Shown: positions 3,950-12,572, counted from the stretch's first letter. The stretch is 32,000 nucleotides of DNA from Geobacter sulfurreducens PCA (GCF_000007985.2 NC_002939.5:3780001-3812000); one strand, 5' to 3'. Notes: generated by a model not told the origin, from the letters alone. Translations and numbers: made by a program.

Positions 3950-5983
3950 TCAGACTCCAGGAGCCGCCGCGTAGTGCACGGTCCTCTGGAAGTACCTGTT
4001 GAGTAAACCACTCTTGCCAGTTATCGAGATGTGGTTCAGTTTCGCGCAACATTTTTCACTACAGCACCGTTTCCCCTCTCCCTTCCGGGTCGAGGTCCCG
4101 CAGCAGCTCCCACCGTCCGGCACCCCCCCCGTCACCGCTTCGCCCCCGAACCGCTCCACCAGCTCGGCCACGAACCGCCAAGCGGGGCGGAGTTCCCCGC
4201 CGGGGGGGGCGCTGCGGTGCACCCGCGGCGGATGGAACGGCGCCGGCTTGTCGGGGGAGGCGTGGTAGCGGGCCGGGAGCCCCCGAATCGGAAGTCCGGG
4301 CGCCATGACCTTCCGGAACCGCTGGGCGCGCCCTTCAAAGTTGACATAGGTGCCGTCCGTCTCCACCCAGGCGGCGGTGGGGATGACGATCTGGGCACGC
4401 CTGACCGTTTCCGTCGGAAGCCAGTCAGCGGCCACCACGAACGGCACGCCGGCCAGGAGCGCCTCGGGGATGTCGGCCTCTACAGCGATGATCCCCTTCA
4501 CTCTCCCCGAGGCAACGGCCTCGGCCAGGGTAACCGCTCCGTGCTCCTTCGCCAGAAGACCCGCCCCAAAGGCGTTGGGACCGGGAAAGAGGTACGCGAT
4601 TTTGGCATCAGTATGGGCAAGTAACTCAGTGGCTGCGGGAGGATTGTTCCTGGTGCCGCAGATGACCACAGCCCTCTCGAATATCGCCAGAGGCACCTCT
4701 TCAATAATGCTGAGCTCGATGGCCTCGATGGAAACGGCTCGGGCTTGCTCAAGGGGCGCATGCGTCCCCACCAGGAAGACCGGTGCGCCGCTGCGCCATG
4801 CCTGCCGGACCGCCAGAAGCATCATCGGCCCTTCGTCCCGGAGGTCCGACTCGAGGATGACAATGCAGTCGGCCTTCCGTACGTCCGCCATGGAGGCCGC
4901 CCTGCCGTCGGCAAGGAGGGAAACGGCGGCGGCTACCCGCTCCCCTTCGTCCCGCTCGGCAAAGTAACAAAGGTACTCCGTCCCGATGAGCCCGGCCAGC
5001 CGTGCCAGAAGGACACTCCCCTCCAGCGGGAGACGGGGTGAGCCGACCAGGGCCAAGCGGCCGGGGCCGTAGAGTTCCATGAACTCTTCAATCCGGAGCA
5101 TGGTGGCGTCGATGGCCGCGGCCCATGAAACCTCCTCCCCGTCCACCAGCGGCACCCTCGGCCGCACCGGGTCGTTCACGGCGGCATTGGAGAACCGCCC
5201 CCGGTCGCAGATGAAGTGGCCGTTCACGGCGGGGTTCTCCCGGGCCATGGTCTTGAGGAGTTCCCGGTAGCGGGCCGCCGGCACGGTGTTGCAGCCGAGG
5301 GAACACCAGGGGCAGACCGAAGGGGCCATCTCGTAGTCCCAGTAACGGGCCCGGAACCGGGCGGTCTTGTCGGTAAAGACCCCGGTGGGGCAGATGTCGA
5401 CGAGATTTCCCGAGAAGGGGGATTCGAGCTCCCCCTCCTCAAACCGGCCGTAGTAGACCCGCCGGGCGCTCCCCATGACCCCGAAGTCGCTGCCGCCGGC
5501 ATACTCCTGGTAGAAGCGGACGCACCGGTAGCACTGGATGCAGCGGTTCATCTCGTGCTGAATGTGCGGCCCCAGATCCTGGTTCACGTGGGTCCGTTTT
5601 TTCCCCTCAAAGCGGCGGATGCCGTGGCCGCCGGCCACGGTGTAGTCCTGAAGGAGGCACTCCCCCCCCTCGTCGCAGACCGGGCAGTCGTGGGGGTGAT
5701 TGGTCATGAGCCACTCGATGACCAGGCTCCGCATCTTCAAGGCCTCGGGGTCGGTGGTGGAGACCACCATGCCGTCCTGGGCCGGGAGCATGCACGACAT
5801 CTGGATCCCCTTCACAGGTCCGTCCAGCAGCTTCACGGCACAGAGCCGGCAGGCCCCCACGCTGCCGAGGGCCGGGTGATAGCAGAAGTGCGGAATCCAG
5901 ATTCCCGCGGTCTTGGCCGCCTCCAGCACGCTGGTGCCGGGAGGGACTTCGACCAGTATGTGATCGATGGTCAGTTTGGGCAT
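3950..5983 (-). CDS. nuoG: NADH-quinone oxidoreductase subunit G (short form with an atypical C-terminal tail)
   Basis: 677 aa. N-terminal 2Fe-2S ([15 protein letters not shown]), [33 protein letters not shown] and CPWCSLGC cluster motifs, then a molybdopterin-like domain. The last ~55 codons after a G8 run are unusual (see findings). Confidence 0.9.
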
Positions 5984-5992
5984 GGTTTCAGG

Positions 5993-6565
5993 TTACAGGA
6001 TAATCACCCGTGGTTGTTCCCCCTTGTCGTACTGGAGCGCCATGACGAGACTTCCCCAGCCAAGGGTGATGATGATGCCGATGCCGAGCAGGAGCGCCCC
6101 CACGGCTGTAAAGATGCTCCCCACGAGTACCGCTAGAATCCAGCCGGCCAGGTCTCCCCTTATGGTTTCGAGGCTCCACCGCAAGGCGTCCATGAACTTC
6201 ATCCGCCGGTCAATAATGCCGTACATGCCGGGCGCGACCACCACCGACAGGACGAACCCCGCCACCTGACCGATGACCGGCACGTGGTTCAGGGCGAACA
6301 TGGCCACGACCACGAGCAGAAAGTAGACGAAAAGATCGCCGAAGCAATCCCAGGCCCGGAAGATGTCCCCCGGCTCCGCCTTTCCCCCGCGGGCCACCTT
6401 GAGCACCGCGCGGATGTAGCCGGCCAGGAAGCCGATGTTGGCCACAGGAATCCACGCCACCAGGGAGAAGACCAGGGAGAGGACGAGGAGATTGCCGAAA
6501 TTGCCCGTCCAAAGCCTCGTGGCCCGGGTCACGAGGCCGCCGAAATCGTCAGATGGTGCCGTCAT
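5993..6565 (-). CDS. Integral membrane protein of unknown function (about 4-5 TM), embedded between nuoF and nuoG
   Basis: Only the last 190 aa of track ORF 5993..7438 are credible (MTAPSDDFGGLVTRATRLW...). ATG 6563..6565 overlaps the nuoF stop TGA 6562..6564 (ATGA). Long hydrophobic stretches: LLVLSLVFSLVAWIPVANIGFLAGYI, LFVYFLLVVVAMFAL, ILAVLVGSIFTAVGALLLGIGIIITLGW. Confidence 0.75.
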   Translation of the reverse strand: MTAPSDDFGGLVTRATRLWTGNFGNLLVLSLVFSLVAWIPVANIGFLAGYIRAVLKVARGGKAEPGDIFRAWDCFGDLFVYFLLVVVAMFALNHVPVIGQVAGFVLSVVVAPGMYGIIDRRMKFMDALRWSLETIRGDLAGWILAVLVGSIFTAVGALLLGIGIIITLGWGSLVMALQYDKGEQPRVIIL

Positions 6566-7833
6566 CCCTTTCCTCCGAGGGGGCAGCGCCCCATCACGAT
6601 GTGCTCCCGGATCTCGTCCTCGAAGAGCCGCAGGAGCCCCTCCACCGGCCCCATGGCACCGGGGGCCAGGGGACAGAAGGCGTAGTTCAGGTACTGGACA
6701 TGCTCCCGCAGGATGGCGATGTGCTCCTCCCGCCCGGCGCCCGCCTCGATCCGGGCCAGGACGTCCTTCACAAAGGGGAGCCCTTCCCGGCAGGGGGTAC
6801 ACCAGCCGCACGACTCCCGAGCGTAAAAGGACACCAGGTTCAGGGTTGCCGCCACCATGCAGGTGTTCCGGTCGAAGACCACGATGCCGCCGGTGCCGAG
6901 CCGGGAGCCGGCCCTTGCCACGGCATCGAAGTCCATGGGGACGTTCCAGTGCTCCCGGGTAAAGAACGGCGTGGACGCCCCGCCGGGTATGCACGCCTTG
7001 AACTCCCGCCCCGGCAGCATGCCGCCGCAGGGGCCGTCGATGATCTCGCCCAGGCTCATCCCCAGGGGAAGCTCGAAGCAGGCGGCGTTGTTCACATGTC
7101 CGCTCACGCAGAAGAGCTTGGTACCGGCCGCTTCGGAGATTCTCGCCAGCCCCTTGAACCAGGCGGCGCCGTTGGCCACGATAGCCGGGATGTTGGCCAG
7201 GGTCTCCACGTTGTTCACCACCGTGGGGCGCCCCCAGAGCCCTTTCACTGCCGGGAAGGGGGGTTTGCTCCGCGGGTTGGCCCGCCTCCCCTCCAGCGCG
7301 TTCATGAGGGCTGTTTCCTCGCCACAGATGTAACGCCCGGCGGACTGGTGGACGTCCAGGTCCAGGGAGAAACCGGAGCCGAGGATGTTCTTCCCCAGCA
7401 GGCCCGCTTCCTTTGCCTCGGCAATGGCGCGCCGGCAATTCTCCGCCGCCTCTTCGTAGCCGCGGCGGATGAAGATGAAGGCATGGGCCACACCGATGGC
7501 ATAAGCGGCCAGGGTCATCCCCTCCACCAGAGAATAGGGGTTCGCCTCCAGGAGTATCCGGTCCTTGTAGGTGCCCGGCTCCATCTCGTCGCAGTTACAG
7601 ATGAGATAACGGGGGCCTGGGATGTCCCGCGGCACGAAGGACCACTTCTTCCCGGTGGGGAACCCGGCCCCGCCCCGGCCCCGCAGATTGGCGTCGATCA
7701 CCACCTGCTGGACATCGTTGGGCGACATGCCGGAAAGGGCCTTCTCCAGGGCCGCGAAGCCTCCCTCCGCCCGGTACTCGGCAAAGGTTACGCACCGGCC
7801 GGGACGGTTATGTCGGAAGAGAACCTGTTCCAT
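6562..7833 (-). CDS. nuoF: NADH-quinone oxidoreductase subunit F (NADH/FMN-binding)
   Basis: 423 aa. GRGGAGFPTGKKWSF, CNCDEMEPGTYKDR, ESCGWCTPCREG (4Fe-4S). ATG 7831..7833. Confidence 0.97.
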   Translation of the reverse strand: MEQVLFRHNRPGRCVTFAEYRAEGGFAALEKALSGMSPNDVQQVVIDANLRGRGGAGFPTGKKWSFVPRDIPGPRYLICNCDEMEPGTYKDRILLEANPYSLVEGMTLAAYAIGVAHAFIFIRRGYEEAAENCRRAIAEAKEAGLLGKNILGSGFSLDLDVHQSAGRYICGEETALMNALEGRRANPRSKPPFPAVKGLWGRPTVVNNVETLANIPAIVANGAAWFKGLARISEAAGTKLFCVSGHVNNAACFELPLGMSLGEIIDGPCGGMLPGREFKACIPGGASTPFFTREHWNVPMDFDAVARAGSRLGTGGIVVFDRNTCMVAATLNLVSFYARESCGWCTPCREGLPFVKDVLARIEAGAGREEHIAILREHVQYLNYAFCPLAPGAMGPVEGLLRLFEDEIREHIVMGRCPLGGKG

Positions 7834-7907
7834 TTACCCCTTTGTTCACCCCCCTGCTTCGCTCTCGTTCGCTTCCCCCTACAAGGCAGGGGGGACCGAG
7901 GGGGGTC

Positions 7908-8252
7908 TTATTGCTCAACAAGAATGTCCTTCAGCACCACCGCGTTGTTGTGCTGTTCGTCCTTTGCCGCGAACAGGAGCGTTACCGTCCCGCCGGCCGC
8001 CAGTTTCCTGAGTCCATCCAGGAGTTCCGCCTTCGCGTCCAACTCCCGCCGGTACCGCTCCCGGAACTCGTCCCACCGGGCCGGGTCGTGGCCGAACCAC
8101 TGCCGCAGCTCGTCGCTGGGGGCGATCTCCTTCAGCCACTCGTCGATGCGGGCCTTGTCTTTCGCGATACCCCGGGGCCAGAGCCGGTCCACCAGGACGC
8201 GCGTGCCGTCCTCGGTTGCCGGTTCGTCGTAGATCCGCTTTACTCGCACCAT
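7908..8252 (-). CDS. DUF488 family protein (YeaO-like)
   Basis: 114 aa. VKRIYDEPATEDGTRVLVDRLWPRGIAKDKARIDEWLKEIAPSDELRQWF resembles E. coli YeaO as I recall it (KRVYD..DGYRILVDRLWPRGI..DEW.KEI.PS.ELR). ATG 8252 lies 3 nt after the nuoE stop, with SD GGAGGG inside the nuoE 3' end. Confidence 0.85.
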   Translation of the reverse strand: MVRVKRIYDEPATEDGTRVLVDRLWPRGIAKDKARIDEWLKEIAPSDELRQWFGHDPARWDEFRERYRRELDAKAELLDGLRKLAAGGTVTLLFAAKDEQHNNAVVLKDILVEQ

Positions 8253-8255
8253 CGT

Positions 8256-8753
8256 TCATCCCTCCGCGGCTGCAAGCTGCCGCCGCTCAGTCGCCAGGAT
8301 CTCCCCGGCCCGCTCCAGCGTCACCCGGCCGTGGAGGGTGTCGCCGACCATGAGCGTCGGGGCTTCGCCGCAGTTGCCAAGGCAGCAGCAGGGCAGAAGC
8401 GTAAAGAGCCCGTCCGCCGTGGTTCCCCCCGGTTCGATGTTCAGCGCCGCTGCCAGGTGCGCCATGAGGCTCTCGCCCCCCAGGGCCCAGCAAGAAATGG
8501 AGTCGCAGACGTGGATCACCCGCTTTCCCACGGGGCGGCGGTAGATCATCTCGTAGAAGGTGGCCAGCTCCTCCACCTGGAGGGGGGTGAGTCCCAGGAG
8601 CTCCGCCGCCTCCCCCACTGCCTCGTCGGTGAGCCAGCCGTAGTGGCGCTGCAGCGCTTTCATCACGTCCACGGCCGCCTCACGGCTGGTGACGGCGTGA
8701 GCGACGCGGGCCTGAAGTTCCTTTTTGAGAAGCTCCGAGATCATCGGCGTCAC
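8256..8753 (-). CDS. nuoE: NADH-quinone oxidoreductase subunit E (2Fe-2S)
   Basis: 165 aa. [13 protein letters not shown] ... [18 protein letters not shown] is a typical NuoE thioredoxin-like 2Fe-2S motif. GTG start 8751..8753 overlaps the nuoBCD stop (GTGA). Confidence 0.95.
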
Positions 8754-11128
8754 CTGTCCAAATCCGCCAGCACGAAGTCAATGGACCCGATGATGGCCAG
8801 AAAATCCGCCACGAGCCACCCCCGGCTCATGAGGGGGAGGGCCTGGATGTGCGGGAAGCTCGGCGTCTTGATCCGCACCCGGTACGGCACGTTGAGGCCG
8901 TCGCTCACCACGAAGTAGCCGTTCTCCCCCTTGGGCGCTTCGATGGCGCTATAGTTCTCCCCCTTCGGCGGCGCCATTCCCCGTGTGGCATTGATGAAAT
9001 GGTGAATCAGGGATTCGATGTCGTGGAGGGCGTCCCGCTTCTTGGGCAGCACGTAACGGTAGTCATCGGTGATCCAGCGCCCGGCCGGCATCTCCTTCCA
9101 GCACTGGCGGACGATGTGGAGCGACTGGCGGATCTCCTCGATCCGGACCCGATAGCGGGCCCAGCAATCCCCCCCCTCCTCGGTCGGAACCTCGAAGTGG
9201 AAGTGCTGGTAGCCGTTATAGGGGATCTTTTTCCGCAGGTCCCATTCCACGCCGCAGGCCCGCAGGTTCGGGCCGGTGATTCCCCACTCCAGGGCCTCGT
9301 CCCCGGTGATGACGCCCACCCCTTTCAGCCGCTCCCGGAAAATGGGGTTCCCCTTCAGGAGATCCTCGTACTCCTTGAGCCGGCCCGGCATCCAGTCAAG
9401 GAACGCCTTCACCGCCCCGTCCCACCCCTCGGGGAGATCGTCGGCCACGCCGCCGATCCGGAACCAGGAGGGGTGCATCCGGCCACCGGTGACCATCTCC
9501 ACAATGTCGAAGATCTTCTCCCGGTCGGTGAACGTGTAGAAGACTGGGGTCATGGCCCCCACGTCGGCGGCAAAGGTGCCGAGCCAGACCAGATGGTTGG
9601 CGATCCGGAAGAGCTCAGCCAGCATGACCCGGATGGCGATGCCCCGGTCCGGCACGGTGATGCCGCAGAGCCGCTCCACGCTGTTCACGTAGGCCAGGTT
9701 GTTCTGGACCCCGGCCAGGTAGTCGATCCGGTCGGTGTAGGGGATGAACTGGTTCCAGTGCTGGCGCTCGCCGATCTTCTCGGCACCCCGGTGGTGGTAG
9801 CCGATGTCGGTATCCATGTCCACGATCTCTTCGCCGTCCAGCTTGAGGACGAAGCGGATGATGCCGTGAGTGCCGGGGTGCTGGGGCCCCAGGTTCAGGA
9901 TCAGTGTTTCTTCGTCAATTCTATCGAAGAAATCAGAGGCAGGCAGGGCCTGATGGCGCCGGGCGTCGTCCGTGGTGTAGGGATGCATCTCCGTTGCCCG
10001 GAAGGGGTGATTTTTCCGCAGCGGGTGCCCCTCCCAGTCGGGTGGCATGAGGATGCGGCGCAGGTTCGGGTGGCCGGCGAACTGGATGCCGTACATGTCG
10101 AAGGCCTCCCGCTCGTACCAGTCGGCCGCCGGGAAGACGCTTGTCGCGCTCGGGATCTCCGGCGTATCCCCTCGCAACTCGGCCTTGATCCGCAGATGTC
10201 CGGGGATGTGGAAGTTCAGTAGGTGGTAATTGACGGTGAAGTCCGGGAACCGCGACCGCTCCCGGCGGCACGACTCATCCACGCAGGCCACGTCCTCCAG
10301 ACGCCGGAAAGGAGCGGCGCTCCGGGTTTTCAGGTGGCGCAGCACGTCCGGCAGCAGCTCCGGCGGGCAGCGGTAGGTGAGCATGTCGGTAGCGTGATCG
10401 TCCCGCACCACCCGGTGGCCGAAGGCCGTTTCCAGTTCGCCGGCAAGACCGAAGTCGGGGAACTGGTGCTTTGGGGCCGGCGGGCGCCACATCTCGTCCG
10501 AGCGGGGCATTGGGAAATGGGGGTGCTGCACCGAAGTCCCCCTGATGGCGATCCCCTCCATGCCGGGTCCCCGGGTGTCGCGGGACTTGGTCACCCCGTC
10601 CACCAGCACCGGCCGGGTGGTTCCCTCGCTCCCGCCGGCCAAGTGGAGGACCTTCCTGGCGGGGCGTTCTTCCCTCCTGATTTTTTCCTGGAGCAGCATC
10701 AGCCCCTGGAGGAATGCCTCGGGGCGCGGGGGACAGCCGGGGACGTGGACATCCACCGGGATGATCTGGTTCACCCCCTGGACCACGCTGTAGACGTCAT
10801 ACATGCCGCCGGAGTTGGCGCAACTCCCCATGGAGATGACCCACTTGGGCTCGGCCATCTGCTCGTAGAGCCGGAGGATTGACGGGGCCATCTTCTTGAA
10901 GACCGTGCCGGCGATGACCATGAGGTCCGCCTCCCGGGGGGTGCCCCGGAGCACCTCGGCCCCGAAGCGGGAAACGTCGTAGCGGGAGGTGAAGGAGGTC
11001 ATCATCTCGACGAAACAGCAGGAGAGCCCGAAGAACATGGGCCAGAGGGAATTGGCCCGGCCCCAGTTGATCAGGTCGTCCAGGCTGGCCAGAATGATGT
11101 TGTTCTGTGGGACCTCAGTCTCGGACAT
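8750..11128 (-). CDS. nuoBCD: Fused NADH-quinone oxidoreductase subunits B, C and D in one polypeptide
   Basis: One uninterrupted frame. NuoB part: [38 protein letters not shown]. About 100-aa linker. NuoC part: [32 protein letters not shown]. NuoD part: [38 protein letters not shown]. Preferred start is ATG 11128 (MSETEV..) behind GGAGGGG; the track start 11143 is also possible. Confidence 0.93.
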
Positions 11129-11543
11129 GGCCCCTCCGTGCACGGGACGGTCCCCAGTCGAGGCCCCCCTTCAGCCAGAGCCAGACGAGGCCGAGAAGGA
11201 GGATAACGATGAAGAAGGTGATATGGACGAGCCCTTGAAGGCCCAGTTCGCGCCAGGCCGTGGCCCAGGCGAAGATAAAGGCCGCCTCCACGTCGAAGAC
11301 GATGAAGAAGATGGCAATGAGGTAGAACGGGACCGGATAGGCGAGCCGGGCCGAACCGGTGGGGATTGCGCCCGATTCGTAGGGGAGTTCCTTGTTGCGG
11401 TTCGTGGTCTTGGCGCCGAGCCACCAGGCAGCCAGGAGAAGCACGCCGATCAGAATGGATGCCGCAAGGGTGTAGAGCGCCAGGGGAAGGAACTCGGGCG
11501 GCAACGAGGGGAAGAGGGAATGTGAAATGCCGGCTGGTTGCAT
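11115..11543 (-). CDS. nuoA: NADH-quinone oxidoreductase subunit A
   Basis: 142 aa, 3 [42 protein letters not shown] is the NuoA/ND3 signature. ATG 11543 behind AAGGAGAG. The 3' end overlaps nuoBCD by 14 nt. Confidence 0.95.
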
Positions 11544-11581: not shown

Positions 11582-11609
11582 ACTCTAGCGCAATCGGGAC
11601 TCATGTCAA
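11582..11609 (-). promoter_or_regulatory. Candidate sigma70-type promoter for the nuo locus
   Basis: Minus strand reads TTGACA (11609..11604), 16-nt spacer, TAGAGT (11587..11582). The predicted start is about 30 nt upstream of the nuoA ATG. Motif reading only. Confidence 0.45.
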
Positions 11610-11642
11610 CGGTTTTGAGGGAAACGCCGATGCCCGGCCACA

Positions 11643-12095
11643 TTAGCGCAGGGCATCGCGGACCCGGGAAAGCACCGCCTCTCTGGGTAGTGCACCGCTC
11701 CAGGTTGCGAGCACCTGCCCCCGTCGCAGGAGCACCAGGGCCGGAATCCCCCGGATGCCGAAGCGGGCTGCCAGCTGCGGGTTCTCCTGGGTGTTCACCT
11801 GAACCACTGCCGCCGTGCCGGCAAGCTCCCGCGCAACCTCCCGCACCACCGGTGCGAAGTCCCGGCAGTGGGGTCACCAGGGGGCCCAGAATTCAACCAG
11901 AACGGGGCCATGATAGCCAGCGACGAACGGGTCGAAACTCCGGTCGGTAAGCGGGACCGGCTGGAAATAGAGGGGCGGGAGCACACCGCGGCAGCTGCCG
12001 CAGCGGCCCGCAACCCCTTCCCTGGATGCCGGCACCCGGTTGCTCGTGCCACAGGCGGGGCAGGCAACGAGAAATGACTGGCCGCTCTCTGCCAT
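11643..12095 (-). CDS. trxC: Thioredoxin 2 (TrxC type with N-terminal Zn finger) containing an in-frame UGA at the first active-site position; candidate selenoprotein (WUPHC)
   Basis: Track ORFs 11874..12095 and 11643..11849 share a frame and are separated only by TGA 11874..11876. Joined product: ..ACPACG..CGSCRG..GPVLVEFWAPW-U-PHCRDFAPVV...FGIRGIPALVLL.., colinear with E. coli TrxC, with UGA in place of the first Cys of WCGPC. Confidence 0.75.
11840..11873 (-). promoter_or_regulatory. SECIS-like stem-loop immediately 3' of the in-frame UGA
   Basis: mRNA: UGA CCC CACUGCCGG [GACUUCGCA] CCGGUGGUG C GGG. Nine contiguous pairs (two G.U) plus three more after a 1-nt bulge. The 9-nt apical loop begins with G, 13 nt after the UGA. 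Confidence 0.55.
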
Positions 12096-12104
12096 GGGAG
12101 GTTC

Positions 12105-12572
12105 CTACCCCTGCTTGGCGAGGAACTCCGCCACCTGCGCCGGATGGGCCTCTGCCTTGGCCACCTTGGACCAGTGCTTCACCACCGTCCCGTCGGGACC
12201 CACCACCACTGTGGAGCGGATCGTGCCCATAGTAGTCTTGCCGTACTGGACCTTCTCGCCGAAGGCACCGTAGGCGGTCATCATGGCGGCGTCCGGATCC
12301 GACAGAAGCGTGAAGGGGAGGCCGAAGGCCTTGATGAACTTATCGTGGGACGCGAGGCTGTCTTTGCTGACGCCGAGAAGAACAACGCCGCGCGCCATCA
12401 GATCCTGGTGCAGATCCCGGAAGCCGCAGGCCTCCTTGGTGCATCCCGGAGTATTGTCCCGGGGATAGAAATAGATGACGACCGTTTTCCCTGCATAGTC
12501 TTTCAGGGAGTGTTTTTTCCCGTCACTTCCCTCCAGGGTGAAGTCGGGAGCTTTTTTGCCTTCCAGCGACAT
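12105..12572 (-). CDS. bcp: Peroxiredoxin, Bcp/PrxQ type
   Basis: From ATG 12572 (SD AAGGAGG): MSLEGKKAPDFTLEGSDGKKHSLKDYAGKTVVIYFYPRDNTPGCTKEACGFRD. The PGCTxExC motif is typical of Bcp. Stop is 9 nt before the trxC ATG. Confidence 0.93.
   Translation of the reverse strand: MSLEGKKAPDFTLEGSDGKKHSLKDYAGKTVVIYFYPRDNTPGCTKEACGFRDLHQDLMARGVVLLGVSKDSLASHDKFIKAFGLPFTLLSDPDAAMMTAYGAFGEKVQYGKTTMGTIRSTVVVGPDGTVVKHWSKVAKAEAHPAQVAEFLAKQG

Follow-up and report, generated by a model that had tools for sequence, protein, structure and literature searches.

Here, we conclude that GSU3446 of Geobacter sulfurreducens very probably encodes a zinc-finger (Trx2-type) thioredoxin with selenocysteine (Sec) at its nucleophilic position, UGA codon 74 being decoded as Sec within a U-P-H-C motif. 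This is based on the alternation of TGA with TGC and TGT at this codon among orthologues, on the recurrence of the interrupted gene on about 170 contigs, on a covarying SECIS stem-loop downstream of the UGA, and on the experimentally proven Sec-insertion system of the organism (PMC13510729). A preliminary description of the locus had read the UGA in the same way and had offered the gene as a candidate selenoprotein; we uphold the reading, but the candidate is not a new one, since the selenoprotein status of GSU3446 is already known and has been catalogued since 2004-2007.

Positions are those of the window, by which we mean the whole 32-kb stretch of DNA that was analysed. The gene and its parts are the following:

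11643..12095, minus strand: Sec-thioredoxin gene of the Trx2 type (GSU3446), from translation, Pfam and locus identity.
11874..11876, minus strand: UGA codon 74, assigned to Sec from translation and from orthologue and metagenome comparison.
11865..11879, minus strand: active site W73-U74-P75-H76-C77, from translation; aligns with WCGPC, WCGYC and WCPHC of Cys homologues.
11991..12062, minus strand: N-terminal zinc ribbon, CPAC (residues 12-15) and CGSC (residues 32-35), from sequence and Pfam PF21352 (residues 11-36).
11742..11744, minus strand: conserved cis-Pro of the thioredoxin fold (G-I-P118), opposite the 'SVP' of Thermus thioredoxin 1v98 in the alignment.

Read from 12095..11643 on the minus strand, the frame holds 150 sense codons followed by TAA and is broken by one internal stop only, the TGA at 11876..11874 (context VEFWAPW-TGA-PHCRDFAPVV); the product consists of 149 standard residues and Sec74. 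As had been proposed, the UGA stands exactly at the first Cys of the CxxC motif when aligned with Cys homologues, and the protein is a zinc-finger thioredoxin of the Trx2 type. With Cys put at codon 74 in place of the stop for the Pfam and NCBIfam profile searches, residues 11-36 match Zn_ribbon_Thio2 (PF21352) at 28.7 bits (cut-off 27.1) and residues 47-145 match Thioredoxin (PF00085) at 94.1 bits (cut-off 23.5). Besides the PF00085 score, GSU3446 has the W-C/U-x-x-C motif and the cis-Pro loop of that family, along with the two N-terminal CxxC pairs of the Thioredoxin 2 zinc ribbon, and it can be aligned over its full length with zinc-finger thioredoxins of solved structure (1v98, E 9e-31; 7d6l; 2ppt; 3p2a). 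The NCBIfam TrxC model (NF008229) matches residues 11-143 with an E-value of 1e-32 and 112.7 bits, under its equivalog cut-off of 125, and we therefore regard GSU3446 as a relative of TrxC and not as an equivalog.

The Bcp protein encoded next to the gene has exactly the sequence of AAR36837.1 and ADI86202.1 from G. sulfurreducens. In this organism GSU3447 is a peroxiredoxin (PMC10582990) and GSU3429-GSU3445 form a proteobacterial-type complex I cluster (PMC5585712). Because of the Bcp identity and the order GSU3447, GSU3446, GSU3445 (complex I), we identify the gene as GSU3446; organism, gene order and in-frame TGA thioredoxin are all shared with the published locus, and the gene itself shows no difference from it. 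The GSU3446 Sec-thioredoxin is reportedly among those catalogued by Kryukov and Gladyshev in 2004. It appears as 'Thioredoxin, TGA' in a table of known selenoproteins (Fujita et al. 2007; PMC1914089 Table 1), and a Sec-thioredoxin is entered in the tabulated selenoproteomes of G. sulfurreducens, G. metallireducens and G. uraniumreducens (Zhang et al. 2006; PMC1794560). More broadly, thioredoxin (PF00085, UxxC) is an established family in a 2026 review of prokaryotic selenoproteins (PMC13188914). The papers on GSU3446 list the gene and do not show its SECIS, whereas the covariation-backed stem-loop at 11858..11840 comes from the present analysis.

A scan of orthologues with one genome per species found TGA at codon 74 in 8 Geobacteraceae genomes of several genera (Geotalea toluenoxydans, Geobacter sp. 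AOG1, Geomobilimonas luticola, Geotalea sp. SG265 and four MAGs) and TGC or TGT in 3, the latter encoding WCPHC or WCTHC. The preliminary description had suggested looking for just such an alternation. More distant relatives carry WCGYC, WCGPC or WCGHC, and about 50 CPHC Cys forms are present in the protein database. A metagenome scan for the pattern FWAPW-TGA-PHC returned at least 120 loci, and at least 96 distinct Trx2-type TGA forms are among the matches listed; two loci (L108 and L149) that matched the pattern by chance, with stops on both flanks of the TGA, were left out.

Two hairpins can be drawn downstream of the UGA, and they overlap and are mutually exclusive:

11840..11858, minus strand: SECIS stem-loop UUCGCACC-GGU-GGUGCGGG, from covariation and fit to the bSECIS consensus.
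11840..11873, minus strand: hairpin CCC-CACUGCCGG [GACUUCGCA] CCGGUGGUG-c-GGG of the preliminary description, the minimum free energy (MFE) fold; not conserved.

The first of these has an 8-bp stem, whose two outer pairs are G-U in G. sulfurreducens, and a GGU loop (11850..11848) that lies 23 nt from the UGA; its fold has an energy of -10.5 kcal/mol (z = -2.8). Structure pairs were counted on an ungapped alignment (A2) of 96 TGA-form sequences, with 500 column shuffles as control. In this alignment 99.2% of the 768 cells pair, two-sided changes occur in five of the eight pairs (38 cells), and no shuffle out of 500 matched the pairing or the covariation score; with the partner slid by 1-3 columns, pairing was 37-62%. 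One pair is C-G in 76 sequences and U-A in 20, with no mismatches, and it couples position 3 of a Phe/Leu/Tyr codon (C/U) to position 2 of an Arg/Gln/His codon (G/A). Elsewhere in the stem, C-G becomes A-U in 6 sequences, a Pro-to-Gln replacement (CCG to CAG) occurring together with GUG to GUU, and A-U becomes G-C in 1 sequence.

The published bSECIS consensus has a loop of 3-9 nt, a stem of 4-16 bp and 16-37 nt from UGA to loop, with G in the first two loop positions, then G or U, and an MFE of -7.5 kcal/mol or lower (PMC13188914). The stem-loop at 11858..11840 agrees with every one of these items in its 3-nt loop, 8-bp stem, G-G loop start, spacing of 23 nt and energy of -10.5 kcal/mol, although the triloop of the GSU3446 type (GGU or GGC) is at the small end of the range, and no bulged U like that of E. 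coli fdhF is evident in it. Rfam gave no match to a SECIS family, either at the gathering threshold over the window or at a permissive E-value over 11600..12150, where its matches were chance miRNA only; Rfam thus seems to be without a model that detects the GSU3446 SECIS. Folded alone, the 66 nt around the UGA, a GC-rich sequence, have a z of -0.44.

The preliminary description had taken the second hairpin, 11873..11840, for the SECIS and had placed it, with a loop starting 13 nt after the UGA, at the short end of the bacterial spacing range. It exists as drawn and is the MFE fold in G. sulfurreducens, at -20.9 kcal/mol (z = -3.0); moreover, 90-96 of the 96 sequences are able to form the six inner pairs, CAYUGY with GYGGUG. 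It is not conserved, however, since only 65.1% of its cells pair in the 96-sequence alignment, which 177 of the 500 shuffles do equally well; its outer pairs are mostly missing, and the only frequent changes in the inner six are one-sided C-to-U changes that leave G-U, with no compensation. The 6 sequences with the C-to-A and G-to-U double change keep the stem at 11858..11840 and break this one. Neither does the spacing hold, as its loop is 12 nt from the UGA, outside the 16-37 nt, and reads GA instead of G(G/U). The ribosome footprint covers the nucleotides just past the A-site codon, and with the UGA in the A site the 5' arm of this hairpin would sit inside the ribosome. We reject it as the SECIS because its pairing is no better than that of shuffles, and consider it very unlikely to be the functional element. 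Because this competing fold is about 10 kcal/mol more stable in G. sulfurreducens, formation of the SECIS at 11858..11840 would depend on unwinding by the ribosome.

As a control for the SECIS at 11858..11840 we used DNA of Cys forms (n = 10), namely relatives picked for a near-identical peptide (FAPAVR or FAPVVR) and three genomic Cys forms. The first loop base, a synonymous third position of a Pro codon, is G in 96 of 96 TGA forms versus 4 of 10 Cys forms, and all eight stem pairs are kept in 90 of 96 TGA forms (the other 6 keep seven) versus 4 of 10 Cys forms. At the protein level, the codon at the centre of the stem encodes Ala in 96 of 96 TGA forms versus 30 of 54 Cys forms (23 have Glu). 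The G-first loop, the stem pairs and this Ala show that the hairpin is constrained specifically with the UGA codon; part of the pairing is nonetheless favoured by the peptide itself, given that 4 of the 10 Cys forms retain the complete hairpin. Several of the Cys forms (among L207, L211, L208 and L010) retain a complete SECIS-like hairpin, two of them with a GGU loop, and they resemble SECIS remnants left behind where Sec was recently converted to Cys.

Could the UGA be passed, or bypassed, without selenium? Termination at UGA leaks slightly in bacteria, which would allow read-through by near-cognate Trp or Cys decoding, and a GTG at 11849..11847, from which an ORF is called, could start the second of two polypeptides. 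Against read-through, homologues have nothing but Cys opposite this codon, the pattern that Sec would give, and a TGA-specific, G-first loop at the canonical SelB distance has no role in such a process. As for two polypeptides, the product from GTG 11849 would be without the entire U/CxxC motif and without the opening strand and helix of the thioredoxin fold, and the GTG overlaps both the SECIS loop and the first 3'-arm base, with no ribosome-binding site context. Either selenium-independent route is very unlikely, and we retain Sec insertion at codon 74.

Gene finding calls two ORFs here, 11874..12095 and 11643..11849, in the same frame, and the expectation that gene callers would split the gene is borne out in strain YM18, where the halves were deposited separately as BBA71867.1 ('hypothetical protein') and BBA71866.1 ('Thioredoxin'). 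A full-length protein with X at position 74 is absent from the protein collection. The GTG at 11847..11849, spanning the SECIS loop and the first 3'-arm base, is the called start of a spurious 68-residue 'Thioredoxin' ORF, and such a GTG-start 'Thioredoxin' is a systematic annotation artefact in Trx2-type Sec-thioredoxins.

The deposited halves are also what a pseudogene would give, in which a nonsense mutation in a Cys-thioredoxin leaves a 73-residue zinc-ribbon peptide or no product: the split is exactly the one that gene callers make, and protein-level evidence for GSU3446 was not found in the searchable literature. However, the TGA is shared by the 8 genomes of several Geobacteraceae genera and by the at least 96 distinct metagenomic sequences, and the covarying hairpin is specific to TGA forms. 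Decay downstream of the stop in orthologues, which the preliminary description had named as a ground for giving up the Sec reading, is not what we see, as 74-82 codons separate the UGA from the next stop in 99 of 100 TGA-form genes. Pairwise differences among TGA forms at codon positions 1:2:3 are 57,471:40,991:108,112 downstream of the UGA and 23,760:20,628:50,809 upstream of it, the same pattern on both sides. The open frame and the third-position-biased divergence past the UGA indicate that this part is translated in frame and is under purifying selection. GSU3446 thus has what defines a selenoprotein, an in-frame UGA opposite the Cys of homologues and a conserved frame downstream, and its being a pseudogene is highly improbable.

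In one TGA form (L095, Ga0316617_100083185) there is an extra in-frame stop about 65 codons past Sec ('..SRVVD*LSGAQ..'), the result of decay of this copy or else of a mistake in assembly.

A sequencing or assembly error hiding a true TGC or TGT, only one base away, has a probability close to nil and can be set aside, because the same cut-off 73-aa N-terminal fragment is called, as an exact match, on about 170 independent contigs (200 data blocks) from many sequencing runs, and the TGA also recurs in independent species. We reject the pseudogene, sequencing error and two-gene readings on this recurrence and on the downstream coding signal; even taken together, all rivals (pseudogene, error, selenium-independent read-through or two polypeptides, and the hairpin at 11873..11840 as SECIS) are unlikely.

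The machinery that decoding of codon 74 as Sec calls on would be encoded elsewhere, as the 32-kb window contains none of selA, selB, selC and selD and no tRNA (ARAGORN), tRNA-Sec included. G. sulfurreducens is classed as Sec-decoding, and its SelD is itself a selenoprotein (PMC1794560). Crystallography has verified Sec in MccSep (U325), a protein made by strain PCA, and the Sec-insertion system of the organism is thereby experimentally proven (PMC13510729). Selenium in the GSU3446 protein itself, by mass spectrometry or 75Se labelling, was not found in the searchable literature.

The gene lies between a peroxiredoxin gene and the complex I cluster:

12105..12572, minus strand: bcp, PrxQ-type thioredoxin-dependent peroxiredoxin (GSU3447), from Pfam AhpC-TSA (1e-40) and identity to AAR36837.1.
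11582..11609, minus strand: sigma-70-like promoter site TTGACA-16-TAGAGT, a consensus match only (10/12).
11115..11543, minus strand: nuoA, first gene of the complex I cluster (GSU3445..3429), from Pfam Oxidored_q4 and PMC5585712.
8750..11143, minus strand: fused nuoBCD, 797 aa, from Pfam Oxidored_q6, Complex1_30kDa and Complex1_49kDa.

The bcp stop (12107..12105) is followed by a gap of 9 nt and the GSU3446 ATG at 12095, the spacing given in the preliminary description, which had also placed a promoter shortly after the thioredoxin stop; the sigma-70-like site, as a match to the consensus, is indeed 33 nt past the TAA and before nuoA, and 2 such sites were found versus 0.2 expected in shuffles. 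Against the NCBIfam PrxQ/BCP models GSU3447 scores under both cut-offs (173.5 bits versus 260, and 121 versus 140). The order trx-nuoA-nuoBCD is seen in many orthologous loci, with bcp upstream in a subset only, and in another large group of TGA forms the gene is next to neither bcp nor nuoA, the family thus occupying two genomic contexts. It is plausible, judging from adjacency, that Bcp and the Sec-thioredoxin form a functional pair with Bcp as the client.

The slot between bcp and nuoA is conserved while its occupant is not: in two Geobacteraceae loci (L048 and L050) it is held by a different, short Cys-thioredoxin, which in L048 has WCHHC, no zinc ribbon and about 37% identity. The complex I cluster (3950..11543, minus strand; L081 10553-18146) is itself interrupted, between the nuoF-like and nuoG-like genes, by a DUF488 gene together with an ORF of 190 residues for which Pfam gave no match.

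How does GSU3446 compare with other thioredoxin-fold proteins? The zinc-ribbon and thioredoxin architecture is that of Thioredoxin 2 (E. coli TrxC; 1v98, 7d6l, 2ppt, 3p2a), but GSU3446 has Sec for the first Cys and UPHC instead of CGPC. The x-x dipeptide tunes the redox potential in thioredoxin-fold proteins, and the preliminary description had called the motif DsbA-like. The P-H dipeptide is indeed identical to that of DsbA (CPHC), but the likeness stops at these two residues: GSU3446 has neither the helical insertion domain nor a signal peptide, and it has the fold and length of a thioredoxin. We reject DsbA membership, as no DsbA family is among the Pfam and NCBIfam matches and the 150 residues correspond end to end to Trx2 structures. 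Among Sec-thioredoxins, that of Treponema denticola, which we take to be a short Trx1-type protein, is reportedly about 10-fold more active with Sec than with Cys, a result that is said to come from Kim and colleagues in 2015. This UxxC protein is the experimentally characterised Sec-thioredoxin (PMC13188914) and shares with GSU3446 the PF00085 fold, Sec at the attacking position of UxxC, and Sec insertion by a SECIS just past the UGA; the Geobacter protein differs in its N-terminal CxxC...CxxC zinc ribbon (Trx2 type) and its P-H dipeptide.

The same W-U-P-H-C motif was also seen in the metagenomes in a second, unrelated family, which is TlpA/redoxin-like ('..LWFWAPW-U-PHCKAxAPAV..'; L103, L118, L127, L133, L135, L144, L146, L160, L164, L165 and L198). 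This family has a hairpin of its own, CUGC-GGUC-GCAG, at the equivalent distance, with a compensatory variant CCAC-GGUC-GUGG, and its GGUC loop presumably matches that of the E. coli fdhF SECIS. In one TlpA-like sequence (L143, Ga0316202_10164890, pattern match 385-410) the codon of the resolving Cys is also TGA (TGA-CCG-CAT-TGA, or U-P-H-U), which from its sequence makes it a candidate UxxU diselenide active site, or could be an error in a 1-kb contig.

In light of GSU3446 being a Trx2-type selenoprotein, how might its UGA be decoded? Following the established bacterial pathway, a ribosome with the UGA in its A site would already have unwound the first 12-15 nt or so downstream, thereby removing the stable, non-conserved hairpin that starts right after the UGA. 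The CCGGUGGUG segment thus freed would pair into the conserved 8-bp stem with its GGU loop at 11858..11840, and this SECIS would bind SelB·GTP·Sec-tRNA(Sec), which would outcompete release factor 2 and insert Sec. The product would be a cytoplasmic disulfide reductase with a selenolate as its attacking residue, and the Bcp/PrxQ peroxiredoxin, whose gene ends 9 nt before that of the thioredoxin, would be among its likely clients. Where selenium is limiting, a stop at the UGA would leave only a 73-residue zinc-ribbon fragment.

Beyond this, the stable, lineage-specific hairpin at 11873..11840 would tie up the 3' arm of the SECIS, so that the SECIS could form strictly with the help of a ribosome; it would then act as a kinetic switch that sets the balance between Sec insertion and termination. 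A cell short of selenium would on this view deliberately make the free 73-residue zinc-ribbon peptide, which might have a role of its own. The placement of the Sec-Trx2 gene directly upstream of nuoA, conserved across many Geobacteraceae, could in turn stem from a redox connection with complex I. This reading, with its switch, its deliberate and perhaps functional peptide and its complex I connection, is very unlikely, and we put it forward as speculation.

Sec-thioredoxins are a recognised family, and to have come upon GSU3446 adds no new biology in itself; the gene is, however, a recoded one that automatic annotation still splits, as in YM18, into a 'hypothetical protein' and a truncated 'Thioredoxin'. 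What is added here is a covariation-backed definition of the SECIS for Trx2-type UPHC selenoproteins, which turns out to be a hairpin other than the most stable one nearby, along with a large Sec-Trx2 family of at least 96 distinct TGA forms in two genomic contexts.
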